Origin: Bacteroidia bacterium
GTDB taxonomy: Bacteria > Bacteroidota > Bacteroidia > 2-12-FULL-35-15
Length of the DNA: 64,000 nt
Direction: 5' to 3'
Assembly: GCA_045805205.1 (NCBI GenBank)
Contig: JBJMLR010000007.1
Span: 114,467-178,466, forward strand
The notes beneath the pieces were generated by a model. It searched no databases and was not told the DNA's origin. It saw only the letters and a program-made list of their open reading frames with translations. Of the stretch, positions 32,332 to 48,287 are shown in pieces; position 1 is the first letter of the stretch, and the number at the start of each line of letters is the position of its first letter. The translations under genes and the position numbers were made by a program.

Positions 32332-32832
32332 TTAACTATTTCGCCTTTGTGCTTTTTCTTTTTCAGAAAGTTTCAGCGCAGGGATCAGGATCATCAGGAG
32401 CACGGGCGATTGTGCCATCCCCATCAGGTAACGGGCGAATTCATACATTTTTTCTGAAATGCCCGTGAACATGTACCCCGAGGCGATAAAAATGCCGGAA
32501 ATGGTAATTATCCCTGCATAGGTCAACAAGCAGAGCTTTCGATATCGGTGATCGCCGAACAGCAGCCGGAGTGCCCAGACGGAAAGCAAAAAATAAAATA
32601 GACTGAAAAGCAGGGTAAGTAACCATTTTAGATTCACCAGCGTATCATAGTCGTAATTTTCCAGGAAGGAAAGCGGCGCGGGAAGAAAGTAATCCTGGTC
32701 GTTATCCCACGCCCGGAGAAGTGCATTTATCGATTTGAAGATATAGTCTCTGAAATAGCCGGACAGGATGATCAAGGAAAGCAAAAGGGTGGCGTAAATA
32801 AAGAATTTTATGCTTTTTCTACCTTTTGTCAT
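32332..32832 (-). CDS. Exosortase-associated membrane protein (XrtX/XrtF-associated type)
   Basis: About 4 TM segments, KWLLTLLF and ARYLMGMAQSPVLLMIL motifs, 5.8 kb from an exosortase gene. Family recognised from memory, not searched. Confidence 0.55.
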   Translation of the reverse strand: MTKGRKSIKFFIYATLLLSLIILSGYFRDYIFKSINALLRAWDNDQDYFLPAPLSFLENYDYDTLVNLKWLLTLLFSLFYFLLSVWALRLLFGDHRYRKLCLLTYAGIITISGIFIASGYMFTGISEKMYEFARYLMGMAQSPVLLMILIPALKLSEKEKAQRRNS

Positions 32833-33013: not shown

Positions 33014-36000
33014 ATGAATAGAAAAAGCTACTCCCTTTTTTTAATTCTTTTTTTTGCGCTTTCTGCAGGGAAAATATTTTCAGCTACTTTTTATTGTCGT
33101 GCGAATGGGAATTGGGCAACCGCATCTACCTGGTCGGTCGTTTCCTGCAGCGGTGCATCTGCGGCCTCTATTCCCGGGGCGGGTGATGCTGTGGTCATTT
33201 GCGCAGGCCGTACCGTTACCATGAATGGCAATCCCGGCGCGTGTCTGTCACTTATCGTTAACGGAACGGCTAACTGGACCTCTGCATTTACGACGAATGT
33301 CGGTGCGGGCGGACTGACCCTGAATACCGGTGCAGTATTATCGGGAACGGCGGTCGGAACTTTGAATGTCGCCGGTACGCTCACTCAATCGGGAACAGCT
33401 ACGATCGGAGGCATCACGCTTGCGGTGACGGGAGCGACAAGTGTTTCCGGAACAATGACATTTAATAATGCGGGTGGCACAAAAACATTTTCGAGCGTAA
33501 CGATCAATGCTCCCGGGGACTTTAGCAGCTCAGTGGCGGAAACATACGCCGTGAGCGGAAATCTCGTAATGAACGGAGGAAGCCTCACGGGATCCAGCAG
33601 TGGTATCATGACAGTGGGCGGCACATTTACGATCATGGCCGGCACTTCAGCGGCGCTGGGAAATATGAACCTCTCGGTAACCGGCCTGACGTCTATTAAC
33701 GGAGCGCTTACGGATAACAGCACAGGCGGCTCGAATGTATTTAATAACGTGGATCTTAATTCTACCGGTAGCTTTAACAATACTGCGGCGGAAACCTATA
33801 CGATCAATGGCAATCTCAGCACATACGGGGGAGATTTTATTGCGACGGGTGCCACTCCTGTTTTCAATATTGCGGGTAATTTCAATGTGGTATCGGGTGT
33901 TTGTGATGTGAGCCGCATTAAGTTCACGATCGGCGGAACTACAACAATCGCGGGGACGCTGGATATAAACAGCGTCCGGGGAACGAAGACATTCAATAAC
34001 ATCGTTGTCACATCTACGGGAACATTTAATTCTACTGTTGCTGAAAATTATGCTGTTAATGGAAATATCCAGGTTGACGGAACTTTTAATGCTAATTCAG
34101 GAGTGTGGACGCTTTCGGGATCAGGAAAAACGATCAGCGGAACAACTGCGATCACCTTCGATGACATTACCGACAACGGTTCATATACCAACAGCGCATC
34201 TGTTACGCTGGGCACAAGCCTGGGCGGAACCGGAACCTGGAGCCAGGCTGCAACCGGAACAGTGAACCTGCCGATCAGCAATGCAAATTTTTCGGTCAAC
34301 ATTTTCAATGCCTCTGCGGCCGGAAATACGGTGATCTACAGCCGTGCCGGAAATCAGACCGTGATCGCGCCGAATGACGGAAGCTATTCCAATCTTACGC
34401 TGTCGAATAGCGGAACCAAGCAGCTTGCCGCGGCTACCGTCGTGGGAAAAAATGTATTGATAAGCGGCTCCGCTGCATTCGATTCAAATAATAAGAACCT
34501 GACGGTTGGCGGTAATTTTACTAATAACAGCACATTTACGCCTGGAACGGCAACTGTTACCTTGAATGGTTCTTCAGCTCAAACCCTGGGCGGAACATCC
34601 GTTACCGGCTTTAATAATCTCACAGTAAACAACGCGGCCGGAATTACACTGGGAAACAGTATTACTGTCGGCGGAGCGCTTGCGTTCACTTCCGGCGTGA
34701 TCACCACTTCAGCAAATAAAGTAACGATCAATTCGGGTGGTTCTGTTTCCGGTGCGGGAACTTCTAAATTTGTCAACGGATTCCTTGAAAAAGCTGTTTC
34801 CATCGGCTCTTCGGTTTCGCGCACATTTGAAGTGGGATCCGGCACTACGGATTATCTCCCGCTGACACTCCTGTTCGGAACGGTTTCATCGGTCGCGGGG
34901 AAGATCACTGTGAAAGTTAACAACGGCGATCATCCGAATATCGGTACATCCGTAATTGATGATCTGAAAAGTGTTAATCGTTACTGGTCGATCACCAACT
35001 CAGGAACAACATTTACCAACTATACGGCAACCTGTAATTTTATCGGGGTGCCTTCCGATGCGGATGCAGGCTCGATAACTGCGAACTATTACATGGCGAT
35101 CTATAACGCCGGTGCATGGACCTTGCTTACAAGAGGAACTGTTGCTGCTACATCCAACCAGGCAACGGGCGTCACAACTGTCGGAGATCTCCAGATCGGG
35201 GAAAAGCGTCAGTCGAGCGTTGTGATCACTGCAAGTCCTTCGGGTACTGTTTGTGCGGGTACCAATGTAACATTTACTGCAACTCCGACGAACGGGGGAA
35301 CGACACCAACGTACCAGTGGAAAAAGAATGGTGTGAATATCGGCGGTGCAACTGCATCCACTTATTCGACCACAACGCTTGTCACGGGCGATGTGATCAC
35401 TTGTCTCATGACTTCCAGTCTTGTGGGTGTTCTTGGCAGCCCGTCGCTTTCCAATTCAATTACAATGACCGTAACTCCAAGTGTTCCGGTAAGCGTAAGC
35501 ATTGCGGTCAGTCCTTCCCCGACCATCTGTGCCGGAGCCAGCGTGACGTTTACTGCGACACCAACGAACGGCGGAACGGTTCCGTTTTACCAGTGGCAGG
35601 TGAATGGTTCCAATGTAGGAACGAACAGTCCGACGTATACCAGCTCGACGCTGACGAACGGACAGATCGTGACGTGTATCCTGACCTCGAATGTGACTTG
35701 TCCTTCCGGGAACCCTGCAACATCGAATGCGATCACGATGACCGTGAACCCTGTACTTCCTGTGAGTATTTCAATTTCAGCAAGTCCGTCATCAACCGTT
35801 TGTGCCGGAACAAATGTGACTTTCACAGCAACACCGACGAACGGCGGCGCAACGCCAGCATATCAATGGAAGAAGAATGCTGTGAACATCGGCGGTGCTA
35901 CAGCTTCCACTTATTCCTCTTCGGCACTGGTTACGGGTGATGTGATCACCTGCCAGCTGACATCCAGCGCTACCTGTATCAGTGGAAGTCCTGCTACATC

Positions 36001-38668
36001 GAATGCGATCACTATGACGGTGAATCCAAATTTACCGGTGAGCGTGAGCATTTCTGCAAGTCCATCATCAACGATCTGCTCGGGAACGAATGTGACTTTC
36101 ACGGCAACTCCGACAAACGGCGGTGGCGCTCCTGTATATCAATGGAAGAAGAACGCTGTGAACATCGGCGGTGCCACATCATCCACTTATTCTACAACAA
36201 CACTTGTGAACGGTGATGTGATCACTTGTCAGCTTACTTCCAGCGCAACCTGTATTACCGGCAGTCCGGCAACTTCCAATTCGATCACGATAACAGTGAA
36301 TCCGAATTTACCGGTGAGTGTCACTATTGCTGCGAGTCCTTCGTCAACGATTTGTGCCGGAACCAGCGTAACATTTACCGCGACACCGACGAACGGCGGA
36401 ACGGTTCCATCCTACCAGTGGCAGGTGAATGGTTCCAATGTGGGAACAAACAGCCCGACGTATACCAGCTCAGCGCTGACGAACGGACAGATCGTGACGT
36501 GTATCCTGACCTCGAATGTTACGTGTCCTTCCGGGAATCCGGCGACATCGAATGCGATCACGATGACCGTAAACCCGATCGTTACAGCAAGTGTTACCAT
36601 TGCAGCAAGTCCATCGGGAACGATCTGCTCGGGTACTTCTGTTACATTCACAGCTACGCCTGTAAATGGCGGGGCAGCTCCTGTATATCAGTGGAAGCTG
36701 AACGGAAGCAGTGTAGGAATTAATTCTCCGACATATACAAACGCTTCGCTTGCAAGCGGTGATGCGATCACGTGCGTGATGACCTCCAATGCAGCCTGCG
36801 TAGTAACCGCAACGGTCAACAGCAATACGATCAACATGACTGTTACCGCACCGGGAACGTGGCTTGGAACAGTTTCTAACAATTGGAACGCAGCCGGAAA
36901 TTGGTGCGGAGGAGTTCCCACATCGACAACGGATGTAACCATTCCTGCCGGTGCGAGCTTCTATCCGCAGCTTACAGCGAATGCCAGTTGCCGCGGCATC
37001 AATATTAACGCGGGCGGGTCATTCAGTCTCAGCAGCTTCAACATTAATGTAAAAGGCAACTGGGTGAACAATGGTACATTTAACCAGGGAACCGGAACCG
37101 TAGTATTTGACGGAGCAGCAGCGCAAACGATCCTGACGGCAGGAACCATGAGCTTCAACAACCTAACCATCAACAACGCTGCGGGTGTGATGCTCGCCGG
37201 AGGTTCATACAGCCTGGACGGAGCATTAACCTGCAGTGCAGGAACTTTCAACACCAATGGCAAGAGCTTTACGATGACATCAACGGCAGCCCGGACGGCA
37301 CGCATTGCTCCGATCACGGGAACCGGTGCAATTACCGGTGATTTTACCGTCCAGCGATTCCTGTCGGCACGTGATACTACCTTCTGTGATCTTGCTTCGC
37401 CGGTCGCCGGAACTAATTTCGATGACTGGAACGCGGAATTGCCGGCCATAAGCTATAGCTATTCACCACCGTATAATGAGCCATCGGCGTACACCTACGA
37501 TGAGACCGGTGATGTGTATGTACCGATCACATCTTCGGCAACAGCGCTGACCTCGGGTAAAGGATACGAAATTTTTGTCGCAGGTGATTTCAGCTATTCG
37601 GGTCTTCCGAATACGACACTTAACCTGACCGGTATACCTGCACAGGGGACAAGAAATCTGAGTGCGTTCATTTCAAATAATGCACAGGGCTGGAACCTTG
37701 TGGGTAATCCTTTTGCTTCCAGCATTTCGTGGGCATCGGTGTACGCTGCTTCCGGTGCGGCATCCAGCGGACTCTATGATTATATCGAGATGTATGACTA
37801 TACGATCGCCGACTGGAACGGATATACGTCTGCCGATGGAATTGAAATTGGTTCGGGACAAGGCTTCTGGGTTTACGGTTTGCCAGGCGCAACAGGTCTC
37901 ACGCTGATCATTCCGGAATCATCGAAAACAAGCTCATCGAACAGCTCTATCAAAACAATGACGAACGGCCAATACCTTTCGCTGCAATTGTCGGGAGATC
38001 AGCATTCGTTTGCGCATACGTTCCGCGTGCGTGTATTGCCTGATGCGTTGAATGGCATCGATGCACTCGATATCCCGTTCAGAAAAAGCCCGAACCTCGC
38101 CACACCTCAGTTATATTCTGTCGTTGAAGGAAGAAAGATCAATACCAATTCATTTAATGGCTCGGATGACAATTATACTATTCCCTTAGAGTCAAAAGCA
38201 ACTTATAGCGGACATTACAGCCTGGATGTTTCCGGGGTCCGGAATATTTCCCGGTATGCGTGCATCAGTCTTGAAGACAAATTCCTTGGAAAAACGATCG
38301 ATCTCACAGCGGTAAGCCGTTATGAGTTTGATATGGATACGGCGGATCGCGCTGATCGTTTTGCCTTGCATTTCAGCAAAACCGGCGACTGTAAAGCAAC
38401 GCAGGCTCAGCAAAACGCGGAGGGGAACCAGTTTGTAGAGGTGCTGCCATCTGCTGCCGGAAGTCATATCAACTTCAGCTTTAATGAATCCACGCCGGTA
38501 ACGGTTGAGGTAATGAACACACTCGGACAGTCGATCGTTCCGGAATTGGAAACAACGGCGGGTTATTCATCGCAGGAGATCCGCTTGCCGGATGATTATT
38601 CGGGACTTTATATTGTTCGCATCACTTCTGCGAAGGGCGTTGTGGTAAAGAAGCTTTACCGGAACTGA
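33014..38668 (+). CDS. Large T9SS cargo / adhesin: beta-helix-like N-terminus, six Ig-like repeats, GWNLVGNP module, type A CTD
   Basis: Signal peptide, G8-like N-terminal motif, tandem Ig repeats, C-terminal NTLGQ...GLYIVRI...KKL. Confidence 0.85.
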   Translation: MNRKSYSLFLILFFALSAGKIFSATFYCRANGNWATASTWSVVSCSGASAASIPGAGDAVVICAGRTVTMNGNPGACLSLIVNGTANWTSAFTTNVGAGGLTLNTGAVLSGTAVGTLNVAGTLTQSGTATIGGITLAVTGATSVSGTMTFNNAGGTKTFSSVTINAPGDFSSSVAETYAVSGNLVMNGGSLTGSSSGIMTVGGTFTIMAGTSAALGNMNLSVTGLTSINGALTDNSTGGSNVFNNVDLNSTGSFNNTAAETYTINGNLSTYGGDFIATGATPVFNIAGNFNVVSGVCDVSRIKFTIGGTTTIAGTLDINSVRGTKTFNNIVVTSTGTFNSTVAENYAVNGNIQVDGTFNANSGVWTLSGSGKTISGTTAITFDDITDNGSYTNSASVTLGTSLGGTGTWSQAATGTVNLPISNANFSVNIFNASAAGNTVIYSRAGNQTVIAPNDGSYSNLTLSNSGTKQLAAATVVGKNVLISGSAAFDSNNKNLTVGGNFTNNSTFTPGTATVTLNGSSAQTLGGTSVTGFNNLTVNNAAGITLGNSITVGGALAFTSGVITTSANKVTINSGGSVSGAGTSKFVNGFLEKAVSIGSSVSRTFEVGSGTTDYLPLTLLFGTVSSVAGKITVKVNNGDHPNIGTSVIDDLKSVNRYWSITNSGTTFTNYTATCNFIGVPSDADAGSITANYYMAIYNAGAWTLLTRGTVAATSNQATGVTTVGDLQIGEKRQSSVVITASPSGTVCAGTNVTFTATPTNGGTTPTYQWKKNGVNIGGATASTYSTTTLVTGDVITCLMTSSLVGVLGSPSLSNSITMTVTPSVPVSVSIAVSPSPTICAGASVTFTATPTNGGTVPFYQWQVNGSNVGTNSPTYTSSTLTNGQIVTCILTSNVTCPSGNPATSNAITMTVNPVLPVSISISASPSSTVCAGTNVTFTATPTNGGATPAYQWKKNAVNIGGATASTYSSSALVTGDVITCQLTSSATCISGSPATSNAITMTVNPNLPVSVSISASPSSTICSGTNVTFTATPTNGGGAPVYQWKKNAVNIGGATSSTYSTTTLVNGDVITCQLTSSATCITGSPATSNSITITVNPNLPVSVTIAASPSSTICAGTSVTFTATPTNGGTVPSYQWQVNGSNVGTNSPTYTSSALTNGQIVTCILTSNVTCPSGNPATSNAITMTVNPIVTASVTIAASPSGTICSGTSVTFTATPVNGGAAPVYQWKLNGSSVGINSPTYTNASLASGDAITCVMTSNAACVVTATVNSNTINMTVTAPGTWLGTVSNNWNAAGNWCGGVPTSTTDVTIPAGASFYPQLTANASCRGININAGGSFSLSSFNINVKGNWVNNGTFNQGTGTVVFDGAAAQTILTAGTMSFNNLTINNAAGVMLAGGSYSLDGALTCSAGTFNTNGKSFTMTSTAARTARIAPITGTGAITGDFTVQRFLSARDTTFCDLASPVAGTNFDDWNAELPAISYSYSPPYNEPSAYTYDETGDVYVPITSSATALTSGKGYEIFVAGDFSYSGLPNTTLNLTGIPAQGTRNLSAFISNNAQGWNLVGNPFASSISWASVYAASGAASSGLYDYIEMYDYTIADWNGYTSADGIEIGSGQGFWVYGLPGATGLTLIIPESSKTSSSNSSIKTMTNGQYLSLQLSGDQHSFAHTFRVRVLPDALNGIDALDIPFRKSPNLATPQLYSVVEGRKINTNSFNGSDDNYTIPLESKATYSGHYSLDVSGVRNISRYACISLEDKFLGKTIDLTAVSRYEFDMDTADRADRFALHFSKTGDCKATQAQQNAEGNQFVEVLPSAAGSHINFSFNESTPVTVEVMNTLGQSIVPELETTAGYSSQEIRLPDDYSGLYIVRITSAKGVVVKKLYRN
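35216..36850 (+). repeat. Six tandem ~91-92-aa Ig-like repeats
   Basis: Unit SVxIxASPSxTICxGTxVTFTATPTNGG..PxYQW..NG...TY....L..GD.ITC..TS...C....A.SN.ITMTV. Confidence 0.92.
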
Positions 38669-39187
38669 TCAGGTCCTGTCAGCGAAACGGTTCACCCAGA
38701 TCATCCATAACCAGAAAATGAATCCGAGGATCACAATGTTGAATGTATAGGCGTGATTGAACTCCGTCCAGGCCCGTGAATGGGTGTCGAGGATGGCAAG
38801 GATGACCACCCGGAGTACATTGAGAAGATGGATCAGGATAATCCCTGCGGGGATGAAGAACAGCTTATAGCGGATCCTTCCCTTGTACGCGATGATGAAA
38901 CATGTGAACAAGGCGAATAAGGTGATCCCATTGCAATTATCTCCCATCCAAAGGCCCGAAGCGCCATCGATCCCGATCAGGCGATCGGCTCCGGTAAAAA
39001 CAAGATATCCCATTGCTTCCAGGATCCATTTAGCCATGGAGAGTGTAAGATCAACAATAAAAAGATCGAAGCGTTCGTCGGGGTGGAGCCAGAGATCGTA
39101 TACGAGATACCAGGAAATATAAAGTGAGAAAATGATCAGAAGAAACCGGGCTACAGGATTCTTCAGGAAAGCGATGTTCATGAACAA
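38669..39187 (-). CDS. Short exosortase (XrtF/XrtX type; Exosortase_EpsH superfamily)
   Basis: TM-rich, catalytic triad context DNCNG (Cys), NVLRV (Arg), NHAYTF (His). Confidence 0.85.
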   Translation of the reverse strand: MFMNIAFLKNPVARFLLIIFSLYISWYLVYDLWLHPDERFDLFIVDLTLSMAKWILEAMGYLVFTGADRLIGIDGASGLWMGDNCNGITLFALFTCFIIAYKGRIRYKLFFIPAGIILIHLLNVLRVVILAILDTHSRAWTEFNHAYTFNIVILGFIFWLWMIWVNRFADRT

Positions 39188-39207
39188 CTATAAATAAAGA
39201 ATCCCGG

Positions 39208-39450
39208 TTAAGCGGGATTCTTTTTTAGTGAGCAATATAATTTGTATCCTCCATATGATATGCCTGCGATCAGCAGCAGTACGATCCCACTATCCAACGG
39301 AATCGGACAGGGAGGAAACGGTCCGCCGCAAGGCGTAGGAACTCCCATTCCCATTCCCATACCCATACCGACAGCGAAAGTATTGGAAATGAAAGCCGGT
39401 GCTGCGATGAACACGACGGAGAGCACTATTTTTAAAAATTTCTTATTCAT
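39208..39450 (-). CDS. PID-CTERM sorting-signal mini-protein (80 aa)
   Basis: Signal peptide, (GM)4, PCGGPFPPCPI, PLDSG, TM helix IVLLLIAGISYGGY, basic tail. Directly upstream of the exosortase. Confidence 0.8.
   Translation of the reverse strand: MNKKFLKIVLSVVFIAAPAFISNTFAVGMGMGMGMGVPTPCGGPFPPCPIPLDSGIVLLLIAGISYGGYKLYCSLKKNPA
39343..39369 (-). repeat. Hexamer tandem repeat (GGWATG)x4 encoding GMGMGMGM
   Basis: Plus strand TCCCAT x3 + ACCCAT + ACC. Confidence 0.9.
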
Positions 39451-39468
39451 ATGATCTTATTTGCTTGG

Positions 39469-39476
39469 CAAAGTTA
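39469..39476 (-). promoter_or_regulatory. -7 promoter box (TAACTTTG) for PID-CTERM/exosortase
   Basis: Exact TAnnTTTG in the 46-bp spacer upstream of start 39450. Confidence 0.5.
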
Positions 39477-39496
39477 GTTAATCGGCGGTGCCGGAT

Positions 39497-41920
39497 TTAT
39501 TTTTTTACAAATTTTTTGGTAACAGCACCTTTTGCTGATTCCACTTTCACGATGTACATGCCGTTAAATCCTTCCGGCAATGTGATGTTTACCGATTGAT
39601 CAAGTGCATTCACGCTCATTGTTTCGGTAATGTTCTGCCCGAGCATGTTGATCACAGAGATGTTTGTGTTCGCAGCTTCTGTATAGCTGAAATTGATCGT
39701 GTTTCCGGTTGCGTTCGGAAGGATCTCAACTTCGTTGCTCAGAGAAGGTGTTGATGAAGCGACCGAGGACTTGCAGTTGCTGTCTTTGCTCAGCACCAGT
39801 GTAAAACGATCAGGGTTATCGTTTGGATCAGCCATGAAGCAGTAGCCATTACCGTCGTTCAGGTCGATCACCTCTCCGGACTGCTTATCCAGCAATTTTA
39901 CGCAGGTATACTCCGGAATAAAGCTGTAGCCTGCAGGATCAAGACGATATTTGCCTGCAACGCTGACCTTTGTCCGCAGCGGAATAGAATAATTTTCATT
40001 AGCAGAATTAAAGCTGAAGATATTGATCTTCTTGCCTTCCAGCATCGTATACATTTCAGGTGTAGTAGCGTTGATACTCTTATGGAACGGGATGTCCTTT
40101 GAGTCGAGTGCATCGATGCCGTCGCCTTCAGCAGAAACCTTGAAGATGTGAGCTGCTTTGGATGTTGTGCTGCTCAGTTTCAGCGTGAAATAAGGCTGCA
40201 TGCGTTCTCCGGCTTTGAGTGAGCTGTTTGAAGAAGTTGTTTTAGCGGACTCAGGGATGATCAGGGTCATCGGGCCGGCAAGTCCGTATACCCAGAAGCC
40301 CTGTGTAGATCCGATCTCCTGGCCGGATGCAGAGGTGTATCCGTTCCAATCCGCGATCGTGTAATCATACATTTCGAAATAATCGTACATGCCGCTTCCT
40401 GCACCGCCGGATGCAGTGTAAACACTCGACCAGGAAATGCTGGATGCAAACGGATTACCAACGAGGTTCCATCCCTGTACCGTATTTGAAACGGAGCTGC
40501 TCAGGTCAAAATCACCCTGGTTCGGCACGCCAACGGTGGTTAGGGTGGTAGCTGGAAAATTCGCATAGCTGTAATCACCTGAGAGGAAAACTTCAAAGCC
40601 TTGTCCGGCATTTAATGACGTTCCCGAAGAAGTTACAGGTACATAAGCATCTGCCATTTCATCATACGTAGCGGCCGAGGCATAGTCGTTGGGAGGATTG
40701 TCAGTATAGCTGACTGCCGGCAATTCATTATCCCAGTCGTTGAACGTTGTGCTTTGCACCGGTGAGGAAAGATCTGCCCAGGTAGTGTCTCTTGCGGTAA
40801 TAAAGCGCTGGATCGTGAAGTTTCCGGCAATGGCTCCGGTGCCTGCGATCGGTGCAATACGGGCTGTCTGAGCGGCGGTAGAGGTCATGGTGAATGGTCG
40901 TCCGCCGGTATTGAAAGTTCCATTTGAAACCGTGAGGACCTCATTCAGATTATATGTTCCGCTGGTGAGTGTTACACCCGCAGTATTATTGATCACCAGC
41001 CTTTTAAAGGTAGTTGTTCCGGATGTATTGGAAACCGTTTGTGATGTTGTTCCGCTGAACGTCACGCTTTTTCCGGCGCTGGCCACAAATGTAGCGGAGC
41101 TGGACCAGTTTCCGTTAACGGTGATGTTAAAGTTGTTGGAATTGAATGTAAGCGTGCTTCCCAATGTAAGGTTTTTGCGGACCAGCAGATCCTGGAGAAT
41201 GGTTTTTGTCCCGGCGCTGGTAGCAATGGTAAGGTTGTAATAGCCGTTATTGGCGCCGGCGATTGTCAGCGGAACATTTCCGGCTCCGTAGTTCAGGATC
41301 ACGGTGTTGTTATTAGCGGAGCAGTCAAGGGTTGAGCCGGCAAAAAAGCCGTTTTTACGGATATCAAGCGTTGCTGATGTGCCATTGATGAATTTTGCAG
41401 TTGAATGCGAAATAACGGTTCCGAAAACAAAGCTTCCAAGGTTGGTTGTCACCGACAGAGAGCTGAATGATGGTGTACAGCCCAGCTTGCTGATGACAGA
41501 GCCGGCAAGGATCGTACGTGTGCCCGTGAATGCATAACGGACCTGGGAGCCCGAACCTGCTGCAACCGAAATAGTAGTTCCGGGAGCAGCGAACTGCATG
41601 ATCCCGATTCCGGTTTCAGAACCAGTGGCGGAGACCACATAATTCCCTTTCACGTTCAGTATGATGTTTGCAAGATAGGAGATTGTACCATTTACCGTAA
41701 GGTTATTGCAGTTTGCAGCTGCAGCGAGTGTGATAGTGCTGCCCGCAGTGATCGTGACATTATCAGAAGCACCGGGAATTCCGGCAGGTGACCATGAACT
41801 GGAAGTATTCCAATCTGCCGAACCGGCAGCTGCGGGAACATAATTGACGCCGATCGCGTCAATGCAAATTCCACATGCAAATAAAGCAGTGGCCGCGAGT
41901 GTTTTTTTGAATAGCTTCAT
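39497..41920 (-). CDS. T9SS cargo protein, paralog of the 1884-aa protein's C-terminal module
   Basis: Signal peptide, G8-like DWNTSSSW..GIPGASDNVTI, shared ARIAPI..QRF..GWNLVGNPFASSISW module, CTD NMLGQ...GMYIVKV...KKFVKK. Confidence 0.85.
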   Translation of the reverse strand: MKLFKKTLAATALFACGICIDAIGVNYVPAAAGSADWNTSSSWSPAGIPGASDNVTITAGSTITLAAAANCNNLTVNGTISYLANIILNVKGNYVVSATGSETGIGIMQFAAPGTTISVAAGSGSQVRYAFTGTRTILAGSVISKLGCTPSFSSLSVTTNLGSFVFGTVISHSTAKFINGTSATLDIRKNGFFAGSTLDCSANNNTVILNYGAGNVPLTIAGANNGYYNLTIATSAGTKTILQDLLVRKNLTLGSTLTFNSNNFNITVNGNWSSSATFVASAGKSVTFSGTTSQTVSNTSGTTTFKRLVINNTAGVTLTSGTYNLNEVLTVSNGTFNTGGRPFTMTSTAAQTARIAPIAGTGAIAGNFTIQRFITARDTTWADLSSPVQSTTFNDWDNELPAVSYTDNPPNDYASAATYDEMADAYVPVTSSGTSLNAGQGFEVFLSGDYSYANFPATTLTTVGVPNQGDFDLSSSVSNTVQGWNLVGNPFASSISWSSVYTASGGAGSGMYDYFEMYDYTIADWNGYTSASGQEIGSTQGFWVYGLAGPMTLIIPESAKTTSSNSSLKAGERMQPYFTLKLSSTTSKAAHIFKVSAEGDGIDALDSKDIPFHKSINATTPEMYTMLEGKKINIFSFNSANENYSIPLRTKVSVAGKYRLDPAGYSFIPEYTCVKLLDKQSGEVIDLNDGNGYCFMADPNDNPDRFTLVLSKDSNCKSSVASSTPSLSNEVEILPNATGNTINFSYTEAANTNISVINMLGQNITETMSVNALDQSVNITLPEGFNGMYIVKVESAKGAVTKKFVKK

Positions 41921-41995
41921 AGGGTTTATTGTTTAATACGTAAAAATATGAATTTATTTTTTATCTGCCAAGGAAACATTGTCCATTTCTGCCTA

Positions 41996-42003
41996 CAAAA
42001 TTA
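41996..42003 (-). promoter_or_regulatory. -7 promoter box (TAATTTTG)
   Basis: TAnnTTTG on the minus strand upstream of start 41920. Confidence 0.4.
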
Positions 42004-42114
42004 ATTCGTTAGCCTCATTTAAGATATAGCTGTGATAATGTTTTCCGTGTAGGAGAAATCACTACAAAAAGCCCGCAAAAAACGTTTTAAAACATGTCGT
42101 CCGCATATAATTTC

Positions 42115-42122
42115 TATATTTG
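42115..42122 (+). promoter_or_regulatory. -7 promoter box (TATATTTG) for the wzc operon
   Basis: Exact TAnnTTTG upstream of ATG 42145. Confidence 0.55.
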
Positions 42123-42144
42123 CAAAAATCCCATCCGGTAAAAT

Positions 42145-44526
42145 ATGGCAGACAAAAAAGGGTCCAACATCATAGAAATGGACGATATCAGGTCGTTCCT
42201 GAAAGTCTTTTCCAAGAACTGGTACATCCTTATTCTGGCTGTCATCGTTTCTGCTGTAATTGCCTATTTTTATACCTACAAGCTTCCTGATATTTATGCT
42301 GCCAAATCACAGGTACTCCTGAAATCGGATCAGACCTATGATTACCAGACAAAGCTTTATAACGGTCTTGGTTATTATCCCATTTACCAGGACAACGCCA
42401 ACCAGATCCGGGTATTGACCTCTAATGATCTTATTGAAAAGGCGCTTGAGAAACTGAAGCTTGATGTTTCCTATTATATCGTCGGCCGCCTCAAAACGAC
42501 CGAAGTGTATGATGCGATGCCGTTTGATTTTTCGGCGAAGCTGCTGGACGGAAAGCTGTACGAAAAAGAGATCAGGTTCAAGATCCTCGACAAGCAGCGA
42601 TTCCGGATCACGTATCAGAAGGGAGATAAAGAAGTAGTGAAGGAATTCCCGTTCGATAAGGATATCTACGACAATGATTTTGTGCTGAACGTAAAAAAGA
42701 ACGATAACATCAACGACAAAACGATCCAGAACATCAGCGAGAATGACTACATGATCAAGGTGCATAATATGGGTAGCATGGTGGGTCATTATAAAGGTGC
42801 ATTAAGTGTGGAGGAAGTTGAAAATACTTCCATTCTTGAGCTTTCGGTAGAGGATGAGATCGCTGCCCGTGCGATCACTTTCCTGGATACACTCTCTAAA
42901 GTATATATCGATTATACGGCATCTGCGCAGTACACGGTGAATGAGAATACGCTGAATAATATCGACAAGCAGCTGGCGGGTGTAACGGAAGTGCTTACAT
43001 CGATCGAGGACGATCTTGAAAATTACAAAGCGAACAAGGAAGTACTGGATCTTCCAAAACAGGAGGACCAGTATTTCGACAAGCTGGTGGAATACGACGC
43101 GCAGAAAAGGGAGCTGGAGCTTTGGATCGGATCCCTCGAGGCGCTGGAAAAATATATTATTGCGATCGGAGAGCAAAAAGATGAGAAACTTTTGCCGCCT
43201 TCTTTTTATATCGGAAAAGATGATGACTATCTGAAGACCGCGATCAACGAGCTGTATACATTGCAGATGAACCGGAATTCCAGGCTATTCAATTCTACAG
43301 AAGAAAATAAGAATATCTCCGAATTGGATCAGACGGTGGTACTTCTCAAAAAAAATATCCTCACGTACATCAAGAATTCGAAAGAGGGCATCCAGAATAA
43401 GATCAAAGATATCGATAAGCAGATCGCCGATTATACTGCGATCATTAAAGGGATCCCAAAAACGCAGCGGGATCTTCTGACGATCCAGCGCAAGGTGGAT
43501 GTGAATGAAAAAATGTATGTCTACCTGCTGGAGCAGCGGGCGAACACGATCATTGCGCGTGCGGGGATCCTTCCGCAAACGGATATTATTGAATCGGCGC
43601 ACTCGATCGGGATCATTAAGCCAAACAAAAGAAAGATCCTTTATTATTTTATGACGGTCGGATTGCTCCTCAGCCTTATTGTCGTATTCATCCGCACGGT
43701 GCTGTTCTCAACGATCGAAAATATCCTCGAGCTGAAGCGCCTGACCAGCCTGCCCGTTCTGGGAGAAGTATTGCTTTCGGACGATGCGAAGTTTAACTAT
43801 ATCATTGTGGACAAAGATCCGAAATCGGCGGTCACGGAGAGCTTCCGGGCCATCCGGACCAACCTGGAATACATGGCAAGCAATGCGCGCTCAAAAGTGA
43901 TCCTGATCACTTCGTACAATCCGGGTGAAGGAAAAACATTCTGTTCGGTGAACCTTGCTACGATCCTTGCCAAAGCCGGAAAAAAAGTGCTGATCCTGGA
44001 ATTGGATCTTCATAAGCCGAAAGTGCAGAAGGCGCTGAATATGTCGTCCGAGATGGGAGTAAGTACAGTGCTGATCGGCAGGAATACAATAGAAGAAGCC
44101 ATTCTAACTACGGAAATTGAAAACCTGTCGGTTGTGCTTTCAGGTCCGACTCCTCCGAATGCATCGGAGATCATATTGAGCCCGCAGCTGAGTGAGATCA
44201 TGGAGTATGGGCGTACCCATTACGATTATGTGATCGTGGATACTCCGCCTGTCGGGTTGATCACCGATGCATTGGTCATCATGAAGCACGTGGATGTATC
44301 TCTTTTTGTACTCAATGCAAAATATGCCAAGAAACAGATCGTGAAGATCGCAGAAGAAATTGTTGAAGCAAATAAGCTGAAGAATTTCGGGCTCATCCTG
44401 AATGGTGTCAAACGCACCCGCCGCGGATATTATAACAGCTATGGCTACGGCTATGGTTATGGCTACGGATATAGCTATGGCTACGGCTACGGCGGTTACG
44501 GTTATGGAAATTCCAAGAAAAAATAA
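42145..44526 (+). CDS. wzc: Wzc-type polysaccharide co-polymerase / BY tyrosine kinase
   Basis: Two TM segments flanking a periplasmic coiled region, ESFRAIRTNL, Walker A GEGKT, Walker B VIVDTPP, C-terminal Tyr cluster. Confidence 0.92.
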   Translation: MADKKGSNIIEMDDIRSFLKVFSKNWYILILAVIVSAVIAYFYTYKLPDIYAAKSQVLLKSDQTYDYQTKLYNGLGYYPIYQDNANQIRVLTSNDLIEKALEKLKLDVSYYIVGRLKTTEVYDAMPFDFSAKLLDGKLYEKEIRFKILDKQRFRITYQKGDKEVVKEFPFDKDIYDNDFVLNVKKNDNINDKTIQNISENDYMIKVHNMGSMVGHYKGALSVEEVENTSILELSVEDEIAARAITFLDTLSKVYIDYTASAQYTVNENTLNNIDKQLAGVTEVLTSIEDDLENYKANKEVLDLPKQEDQYFDKLVEYDAQKRELELWIGSLEALEKYIIAIGEQKDEKLLPPSFYIGKDDDYLKTAINELYTLQMNRNSRLFNSTEENKNISELDQTVVLLKKNILTYIKNSKEGIQNKIKDIDKQIADYTAIIKGIPKTQRDLLTIQRKVDVNEKMYVYLLEQRANTIIARAGILPQTDIIESAHSIGIIKPNKRKILYYFMTVGLLLSLIVVFIRTVLFSTIENILELKRLTSLPVLGEVLLSDDAKFNYIIVDKDPKSAVTESFRAIRTNLEYMASNARSKVILITSYNPGEGKTFCSVNLATILAKAGKKVLILELDLHKPKVQKALNMSSEMGVSTVLIGRNTIEEAILTTEIENLSVVLSGPTPPNASEIILSPQLSEIMEYGRTHYDYVIVDTPPVGLITDALVIMKHVDVSLFVLNAKYAKKQIVKIAEEIVEANKLKNFGLILNGVKRTRRGYYNSYGYGYGYGYGYSYGYGYGGYGYGNSKKK
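44440..44508 (+). repeat. (TAY GGN)n repeat encoding the YG tyrosine cluster
   Basis: YGYGYGYGYGYSYGYGYGGYGYG. Confidence 0.9.
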
Positions 44527-47789: not shown

Positions 47790-48287
47790 ATGAAATTAAG
47801 TCTCCTGCTTCCATGTGCTTTCTTCTTTTGCTGCTCACTGGGGTACGCTCAGTATGTGGAGCGGCCTACAGATTTTTCTTCTTCGGGATCATACGGATAT
47901 AATACCACCAACCAGCTTCAATCCAATATCGGTGAGTTGATGATAACGACATTCAGCTCTTCCGCCGGAATGCTGACGCAAGGGTATATTCAGCCTGAAC
48001 CGGGCGTCATCACTGTTGCCGGAAATATCGGGACAGGACAGGCGCTGGTGTATCCGAATCCTTTTACCGATCAGTTTTTTGTTGATCTTCCTTCTGCTGC
48101 TGACCAGCCTTCAATTGAAGTGTATGATGTGACGGGTCGGTTGTGCTCTGCTTCACTTGAGTCCGTAACTATCTCCGGCCGGCTGCGTTACTCACTCCGC
48201 TTAGCTGAAAGTGCCGGCGGAATTTATTTTGTAAGAATTCATTCTGCGCAGATCAATGCCACGATCAAAATAATTAAGCTCGGATGA
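47790..48287 (+). CDS. Small T9SS type A cargo protein (165 aa)
   Basis: Signal GYA/QY, short SNIGE...LTQGYIQP domain, CTD VYPNPF...YDVTGR...GIYFVRI...KIIK. Confidence 0.85.
   Translation: MKLSLLLPCAFFFCCSLGYAQYVERPTDFSSSGSYGYNTTNQLQSNIGELMITTFSSSAGMLTQGYIQPEPGVITVAGNIGTGQALVYPNPFTDQFFVDLPSAADQPSIEVYDVTGRLCSASLESVTISGRLRYSLRLAESAGGIYFVRIHSAQINATIKIIKLG

Follow-up and report, generated by a model that had tools for sequence, protein, structure and literature searches.

A small PID-CTERM protein encoded beside exosortase X in a Bacteroidia bacterium as a probable dedicated sorting substrate

The window analyzed here is a 64,000-nt stretch of contig JBJMLR010000007.1 (GenBank assembly GCA_045805205.1) from a Bacteroidia bacterium. 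It carries, on its minus strand, a gene for a mini-protein of 80 amino acids (a.a) plus a stop codon (nt. 39208..39450 (−)), directly followed by a gene for exosortase X (xrtX). The translation of this open reading frame (ORF), MNKKFLKIVLSVVFIAAPAFISNTFAVGMGMGMGMGVPTPCGGPFPPCPIPLDSGIVLLLIAGISYGGYKLYCSLKKNPA, agrees exactly with the sequence and coordinates claimed in a first-pass annotation of the same DNA made without database searches, which had proposed a sorting-signal mini-protein of the PID-CTERM type. This type was borne out by the curated models, with residues 51-72 matching the NCBIfam model NF046080 (PID_CTERM) at 28.8 bits (curated cut-off of 26). All three models of the PID-CTERM/XrtX system of Bacteroidota (NF046080, NF046081, and NF046082) are above their cut-offs in the window, and the order of mini-protein gene and then xrtX is as in the wider family. 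A Pfam scan of the mini-protein gave no match; most of its homologs carry a precomputed match to PF28310.1, a Pfam model newer than the release used in our scan.

Hydropathy analysis of the mini-protein showed two peaks, at residues 8-22 and ~50-69. The first belongs to a predicted Sec/signal peptidase I (SPase I) signal peptide (nt. 39373..39450 (−), residues 1-26, MNKKFLK / IVLSVVFIAAPAF / ISNTFA), recognized by hydropathy and sequence features only, namely an n-region with K3, K4, and K7, the hydrophobic residues 8-22, and T-F-A at positions −3..−1. In the aligned homologs, the junction reads A-x-A/G and is followed by GMG. A lipoprotein (SPase II) reading was rejected, as the hydrophobic region is without a following Cys. 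The GMGMGMGMG tract comes next (nt. 39343..39369 (−), residues 28-36), and is indeed the hexamer repeat noted in the first-pass annotation, a 6-bp tandem repeat of 4.0-4.3 copies by Tandem Repeats Finder. The Cys loop CGGPFPPC (nt. 39307..39330 (−), residues 41-48) abuts the sorting motif on its upstream side, and four Met and two Cys in all lie inside 22 residues. The PID-CTERM tripartite sorting signal (nt. 39211..39300 (−)) comprises PLDSG, a predicted transmembrane (TM) helix at ~residues 55-72, and a basic tail; the order of PLDSG, IVLLLIAGISYGGY, and K70/K76/K77, with the protein ending at residue 80, is kept in 120 homologs. Apart from the predicted export signal and the PID-CTERM tag, the mini-protein has little to it beyond ~24 residues rich in Gly, Met, Pro, and Cys.

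The xrtX gene (nt. 38669..39181 (−)) begins 26 nt 3′ of the mini-protein stop codon and encodes 170 a.a from the ATG at 39181. Its product matches NF046081 at 177.2 bits (cut-off of 170), along with TIGR04178 (48 bits) and PF09721, and scores 78.9 bits on the XrtF model TIGR04128, below the cut-off of 90. Residues C83, R124, H143, and N121 are invariant in 74 sequences, the first three corresponding to the Cys/Arg/His triad that has been proposed for the exosortase and archaeosortase enzymes (Haft 2023, bioRxiv 10.1101/2023.06.07.544157), and, judged from these residues, the enzyme encoded directly downstream of the mini-protein appears catalytically plausible. The homolog search for XrtX returned close relatives only (≥59% identity), and the enzyme family was not widened by it.

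A search over one genome per GTDB species placed close homologs of the mini-protein in 31 loci (L001-L031), all in metagenome-assembled genomes (MAGs) of uncultured Bacteroidota. One of these (L005) ends before the position of xrtX, leaving 30 testable loci, and in 29 of them the mini-protein gene is followed by xrtX on the same strand at a distance of 13-78 nt, almost always no more than ~30 nt. The term ‘dedicated’ has been applied to systems in which the genes for an enzyme and its single target directly follow one another (Haft 2023, bioRxiv 10.1101/2023.06.07.544157). Across the 431 kb formed by the window and the 31 loci, the mini-protein was the only ORF with a PID-CTERM tail.

At the protein level, a search of 5.8 billion proteins returned at least 120 homologous clusters (48-89 a.a, E ≤ 8e-15), all from metagenomes or Bacteroidota MAGs and mostly unnamed or labeled ‘hypothetical protein’; the count is a lower bound, and the cluster counts on motif and GM units given here refer to these 120. 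The product was thus already in public protein sets, mostly as ‘hypothetical protein’, contrary to the first-pass expectation that small-ORF cut-offs would miss it. Residues P40, C41, G42, P47, C48, P51, L59, and G63 are invariant in the alignment, the stretch PCGGPFPPCP[IV]PLD is nearly so, and CGGPFPPC itself is present in 104 of the 120 clusters. The tract ahead of the first Cys varies in length, with zero GM units in 3 clusters, one in 11, two in 34, three in 31, and four in 41. A homolog alignment had been suggested in the first-pass annotation to ask whether the Cys loop is conserved and the tract before it variable, and both proved to be so, with C41 and C48 of the Cys-x6-Cys loop invariant and the GM tract ranging between 0 and 4 units. 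Nearly all homologs keep the first GMG, and in several lineages G, S, or T stands in the place of Met. We obtained 0 matches when metagenome contigs were searched with exact flanks for strain-level variants in GM repeat number, and the variation we observe in GM number is between lineages.

Pairwise ratios of non-synonymous to synonymous substitution (dN/dS) against seven 80-a.a homologs ranged from 0.09 to 0.2, with dS saturated, and came to ~0.1 for the whole mini-protein and ~0.04 for its mature part. Over residues 27-56, the window and L005 differ by 13 synonymous and 3 non-synonymous changes, and selection therefore acts on the peptide itself and not on the DNA repeat. Together with the ORF, its translation, the PID_CTERM match, and the homologs, these values identify the mini-protein gene as real and under purifying selection. 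Given the minus-frame dN/dS, we take an antisense ORF of 70 a.a (nt. 39242..39454 (+)) to be a mere reflection of the coding strand and not a gene. The mini-protein is a clade-level member of a system that databases already cover through NCBIfam models, RefSeq product naming, and a Pfam accession, and for which we found no published description; a literature search on PID-CTERM, XrtX, and ‘exosortase X’ found nothing relevant.

The mini-protein gene is preceded by a sequence of the form TAnnTTTG, the −7 consensus of Bacteroidota promoters. This −7 box (TAACTTTG; nt. 39469..39476 (−)), present as the first-pass annotation had stated, lies 26 nt before the ATG and is put forward here as a candidate by motif match. 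An exact TAnnTTTG occurs within 60 nt 5′ of the ATG in 20 of the 31 homologous loci, mostly at −22..−32. A −33 TTTG lies 31 nt from the −7 box, too distant for the usual spacing, and our claim is limited to the −7 box. A sigma-70 promoter scan performed at chance level (6 found vs. 5.9 expected), its consensus not being applicable to Bacteroidota.

At the other end of the gene, we noted a terminator-like hairpin (nt. 39196..39223 (−)) with an 11-bp stem and a 6-nt loop that holds the TAA stop codon; a T-rich run comes after the stem. Its 5′ arm and a portion of the loop are made up of the final codons of the gene (AAA-AAG-AAT-CCC-GCT-TAA), and the stem continues into the first spacer nucleotides. 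The hairpin folds at −16.1 kcal/mol (z = −5.1 vs. shuffles), is also reported by a terminator scan, and recurs at −12.3 kcal/mol or stronger in 29 of the 31 homologous loci. The stem covaries: L023 has a compensated CCT/AGG pair, L024 a wholly different yet perfectly paired stem, and the third base of the Lys codon with its partner occurs as G-C (12), A-U (11), and G-U (6), never as A-C. The single locus without a downstream xrtX (L028) is without both the hairpin and the KKNPA tail. That the KKNPA codons serve as the 5′ arm of a stop-spanning, terminator-like hairpin with compensatory changes is new in this analysis, and this conservation suggests that RNA structure accounts, at least in part, for the KKNPA tail. 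As the two genes are only ~26 nt apart, xrtX is probably transcribed by read-through past the hairpin. An Rfam scan of nt. 38000..42200 gave no family above its gathering score, with one chance-level rimP match (24.7 bits vs. 47).

Beyond this clade, a profile search of 1.84 billion cluster representatives yielded 362 at E ≤ 1e-3, nearly all of 55-117 a.a. Their common plan is a signal peptide, a short Pro/Gly-rich spacer (P 26%, G 18%), P-[IL]-D-G-G, a TM helix, and KK. The signal peptide ends at a small-residue/Gln junction in 93 of 147 representatives; under the Q-rule for SPase I substrates in Bacteroidetes (PMC5837995), such junctions would likely leave a blocked pyroglutamate N-terminus. 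In about half of the wider family, a small Cys loop lies directly before the motif (CWPPPC, CGGEFGPC, CGEPFGAVC, and others); 76 of 141 members have two Cys, and 42 of 141 (~30%) have none. RefSeq names the member from a cultured carrier, Ferruginibacter sp. HRS2-29, ‘PID-CTERM protein-sorting domain-containing protein’.

Starting from a 10-sequence alignment of the CWPPPC subfamily, we located 80 wider-family loci (L032-L111), among them Crocinitomicaceae, Flavobacteriales, Owenweeksia, Ferruginibacter, and Niastella. All 80 matched ORFs are short (≤146 codons from stop to stop). An XrtX-like gene lies immediately downstream in ~50 of the 80 loci, a few of these being XrtY-like and below the cut-off. 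Certain Cys-less mini-proteins (e.g., ...GGPGGDPDTEIPIDGG...) sit directly upstream of exosortases (L070:5226-5942 and L083:5213-5863) whose best model is XrtY (116 and 96 bits vs. a cut-off of 160), and the mini-then-exosortase arrangement may extend beyond XrtX proper. We also observed tandem pairs of PID-CTERM mini-protein genes (L081:336-1029 and L086:4574-5171), showing that the copy number is not always one. The mini-proteins with no nearby exosortase gene (L039, L056, L058, L060, L064-L067, L072, L073, L078, and others) are mainly from Chitinophagaceae/Ferruginibacter, with DPGCDPLDPxCPIDGG, or from Owenweeksia, without Cys.

Compared with the core of the PID-CTERM/XrtX system, the clade of the window is peripheral, with the motif P-L-D-S/G-G instead of P-I-D-G-G and a PID_CTERM score of 28.8 bits vs. 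36-48 bits in core members. It is further set apart by its (GM)n tract, by the invariant loop CGGPFPPC, and by a KKNPA tail whose codons also form one arm of the terminator-like hairpin, and its XrtX-associated gene is displaced by a giant gene encoding a product with a type IX secretion system (T9SS) tail. The GM tract and the hairpin at the stop codon are confined to this clade, the wider family having Pro/Gly-rich spacers instead, and the GM tract would be this clade's form of the flexible Gly/Pro spacer of the family. The Cys loop beside the motif is more likely a part of extended recognition or a structural element than free ‘cargo’.

From the matches to all three curated models, the near-constant adjacency to xrtX, the invariant Cys/Arg/His of the enzyme, the absence of any other PID-CTERM ORF in the 431 kb, the selection on the peptide, the expression signals, the shared architecture of the wider family, and the precedents of ArtA and XrtF, we consider it probable that the mini-protein is a dedicated, one-to-one substrate of exosortase X. 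The precursor would be exported by Sec and cut by SPase I after A26 (TFA), with the C-terminal helix holding it in the inner membrane. XrtX, a putative membrane-embedded Cys protease and probable transpeptidase, would remove this helix at or next to P51-L52-D53 and pass the ~25-residue peptide (V)GMGMGMGMGVPTP-C-GGPFPP-C-PIP to an acceptor, which may be a lipid (by analogy with ArtA) or a cell-surface glycan. What results would be large amounts of a short peptide anchored to the envelope and not a folded cargo protein. Owing to the promoter box and the terminator-like hairpin, transcripts of the substrate would greatly outnumber those of xrtX, a ratio expected of a structural product relative to the enzyme that processes it.

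Several known systems resemble this one. PEP-CTERM proteins sorted by exosortase A (XrtA, EpsH) share the tripartite signal, the motif abutting the TM helix, the basic tail, a homologous enzyme family, and adjacent Wzc-type exopolysaccharide genes; however, there one enzyme serves many, often large, substrates, whereas here it stands beside a single cargo-poor mini-protein, and neither the motif (PLD/PID) nor the phylum is shared. An outcome has been demonstrated for just one member of the enzyme family, ArtA of Haloferax volcanii, where the PGF-CTERM helix is removed and a lipid attached (PMC7157517). ArtA belongs to a homologous enzyme family with the same conserved Cys/Arg/His as XrtX, which is the basis of the analogy, but it is archaeal, its substrates are large S-layer and other glycoproteins, and its acceptor is an archaeal lipid. 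The closest named XrtX paralog, XrtF, is also paired with a small membrane partner, and in Flavobacterium johnsoniae both the formation of biofilms and the colonisation of surfaces depend on the two (Fjoh_1448/1449; PMC10936215). The substrates of XrtF are unknown (PMC12188702), whereas XrtX has an obvious adjacent candidate. In the MYXO-CTERM and JDVT-CTERM systems (Haft 2023), a Cys likewise lies right at the signature motif, and JDVT-CTERM also has dedicated, adjacent genes; in contrast, processing there is by CPBP/Rce1-like myxosortases and not exosortases, and ~30% of PID-CTERM mini-proteins have no Cys.

Several points weigh against a dedicated substrate. Cleavage, its position, and the acceptor are what we infer, and we found no experimental study of exosortase X; the signal peptide and TM helix are likewise predictions from sequence features. 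The mini-protein clears the PID_CTERM cut-off by a narrow margin (28.8 vs. 26 bits, with core members at 36-48 bits). In one close locus (L028), xrtX is 6.8 kb away on the opposite strand, and ~30 of the 80 wider-family mini-proteins are without an exosortase gene within 5 kb; these either rely on an enzyme gene located elsewhere or are orphans. The hairpin is terminator-like by sequence and folding, and most wider-family pairs abut or overlap without such a hairpin, so that the stoichiometry argument is limited to the clade of the window.

Exosortases occur widely and have been connected with the formation of biofilms and flocs, and neither the cleavage site nor the acceptor is known for the bacterial enzymes. 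The XrtX cassette would be a minimal one-to-one pair of enzyme and substrate, with a predicted mature peptide of ~25 residues that is tractable by mass spectrometry. In the clade of the window, there are in addition a Met tract of variable length, a Cys loop that is invariant, and a terminator-like hairpin in the coding tail, which are experimental handles and not in themselves a new kind of system.

A bolder form of the dedicated-substrate reading, which we regard as tentative and on the doubtful side, takes the PID-CTERM mini-proteins to be ‘cargo-less’ substrates. The ~15-30-residue peptide would itself be the product, ligated by XrtX to a membrane lipid or surface glycan as an abundant, ribosomally encoded lipopeptide or glycan-linked peptide, and lineages would tune its chemistry, here with a slippage-prone (GM)n tract reactive to soft metals and oxidants and a disulfide-locked Phe/Pro loop. 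If true, this would be the first exosortase substrate in which the cleavage site and the long-unknown acceptor can be read directly by mass spectrometry, owing to its small size.

The strict gene pairing and the near absence of a cargo domain would also suit an uncleaved, small bitopic membrane subunit or regulator of XrtX, acting as a pseudo-substrate, activator, or scaffold, much as the related XrtF works with a small membrane partner (PMC10936215). We think this unlikely: XrtX has a separate curated partner in the XrtX-associated membrane protein, the mini-protein C-terminus is a full tripartite sorting signal matching a curated sorting-domain model, the promoter and terminator-like hairpin suggest a large excess over the enzyme, and some loci (L081 and L086) have two tandem mini-protein genes.

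Quite improbable, in our estimate, is a periplasmic or surface peptide for binding Cu(I)/Ag(I) or scavenging oxidants, in which the alternating Met, alone or together with the two Cys, would bind soft metals by chelation or consume oxidants, and XrtX would serve only as the anchoring enzyme. Motifs of the MxM type bind Cu(I)/Ag(I) in other proteins. The mini-protein, with its four Met and two Cys within 22 residues, resembles Met-rich motifs such as those of CusF, PcoC/CopC, and the CueO insert, and the Sec-exported metallophores among ribosomally synthesized and post-translationally modified peptides (RiPPs), in its alternating Met, two Cys, and periplasmic location, a likeness confined to sequence. 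Strong purifying selection acts on the mature part within the clade, and 3-4 GM units are kept in 72 of the 120 clusters. The mini-protein locus, however, is without metal-homeostasis or MNIO-type maturase genes, and we found no cop, cus, sil, mer, or MNIO/DUF692 genes in the window neighborhood or among the conserved neighbors, where the setting is instead one of polysaccharide export and T9SS. Met is exchangeable for G, S, and T, 14 of the 120 clusters have 0-1 GM unit, the wider-family spacers are Pro/Gly-rich without Met, and ~30% of members have no Cys at all. The first-pass proposal of a metal sink or sensor is unsupported on these same grounds, namely the absence of nearby copper or silver genes and the non-invariant Met; metal binding may occur in the clade of the window.

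A released RiPP-like signal or bacteriocin, secreted after disulfide cyclisation or head-to-tail ligation by XrtX transpeptidation, has in its favor a short conserved core with two invariant Cys and a precursor-terminator-enzyme gene order also typical of RiPP loci, but is highly improbable given that the conserved neighbors include no maturase, immunity gene, or dedicated peptide exporter, that the N-terminal part is a Sec-type signal peptide and not a leader, and that the small-residue/Gln junction in 93 of 147 representatives, with its pyroglutamate block under the Q-rule (PMC5837995), speaks against head-to-tail ligation as the family mechanism. Head-to-tail polymerisation was judged unlikely for the family together with cyclisation, most of the wider family having Gln(+1) junctions. 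RiPP-modifying enzymes (radical SAM, YcaO, LanM/LanB, MNIO, etc.) are absent among the genes of nt. 27457-50245 and among the conserved neighbors in the 111 loci, and the RiPP-like claim of the first-pass annotation finds no modifying enzyme there. Gene context leaves its functional ideas (RiPP, Cu/Ag binding, and cyclic peptide) unsupported; the disulfide ring, the lipid linkage, and the release of the peptide are putative.

The mini-protein and xrtX genes lie in a polysaccharide-export and T9SS neighborhood. The order in the window is Wzt, Wzm, and a Wzc-like gene (divergent), then the gene for an 807-a.a T9SS-tail protein, the mini-protein gene, and xrtX (all on the minus strand), a convergent gene for a 1884-a.a T9SS paralog, the gene for the XrtX-associated protein, and glyA. 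Between nt. 27457 and 50245, the annotated genes encode OmpA/PorE-like, E2 acyltransferase, serine hydroxymethyltransferase, XrtX-associated, T9SS, XrtX, Wzc, Wzm/Wzt, and family 2 glycosyltransferase (GT2) proteins. The XrtX-associated membrane protein (nt. 32332..32832 (−), 166 a.a) matches NF046082 at 75.7 bits (cut-off of 75). In the clade of the window, its gene is parted from xrtX by ~6 kb, with the convergent giant T9SS gene (1884 a.a in the window) in between; in the wider-family loci, it comes right after xrtX in 36 of 80.

Adjoining the mini-protein gene upstream is the gene for the 807-a.a T9SS-tail protein (nt. 39497..41920 (−); TIGR04183, 47 bits). Of the close loci, 28 of 32 have a homolog in the corresponding upstream position, as do 42 of the 80 wider ones (there ~1000 a.a), and the 807-a.a protein shares 30% identity over 570 a.a with the upstream neighbor in a Crocinitomicaceae-type locus (L034), which marks it as a conserved companion of the cassette. 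Such T9SS-tail neighbors upstream of the mini-protein and xrtX genes across distant Bacteroidota hint at a functional link between the XrtX system and T9SS cargo. The giant T9SS-tail paralog (nt. 33014..38668 (+), 1884 a.a), located between xrtX and the XrtX-associated gene, matches TIGR04183 and has Ig/PKD-like repeats; its C-terminal part is 53% identical to the 807-a.a protein over 552 a.a. We noted a ~550-a.a C-terminal module common to these T9SS-tail proteins (nt. 39497..41920 (−), nt. 33014..38668 (+), and L034:1877-4903), for which Pfam and NCBIfam offer no family and which has SPVQSTTFNDWDNELP and GWNLVGNPFASSISW among its motifs. A further ORF in the window (nt. 47790..48287 (+), 165 a.a) is, like the mini-protein, given over mostly to sorting, its product consisting almost entirely of a signal sequence together with a type A sorting domain of the T9SS (TIGR04183, 43 bits).

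On the polysaccharide side, the divergent gene at nt. 42145..44526 (+) encodes a Wzc-like polysaccharide co-polymerase/tyrosine autokinase and is followed by Wzm/Wzt-like ABC genes and a GT2 glycosyltransferase gene. This Wzc-like neighbor is conserved in 21 of the 32 close loci and in 41 of the 80 wider ones, and the conserved neighbors also include ABC-2 transporter genes. At the C-terminal end of the Wzc-like kinase in the window, Tyr and Gly repeat with unusual regularity (RRGYYNSYGYGYGYGYGYSYGYGYGGYGYGNSKKK), which takes to an extreme the Tyr cluster found at the C-terminus of bacterial tyrosine (BY) kinases.

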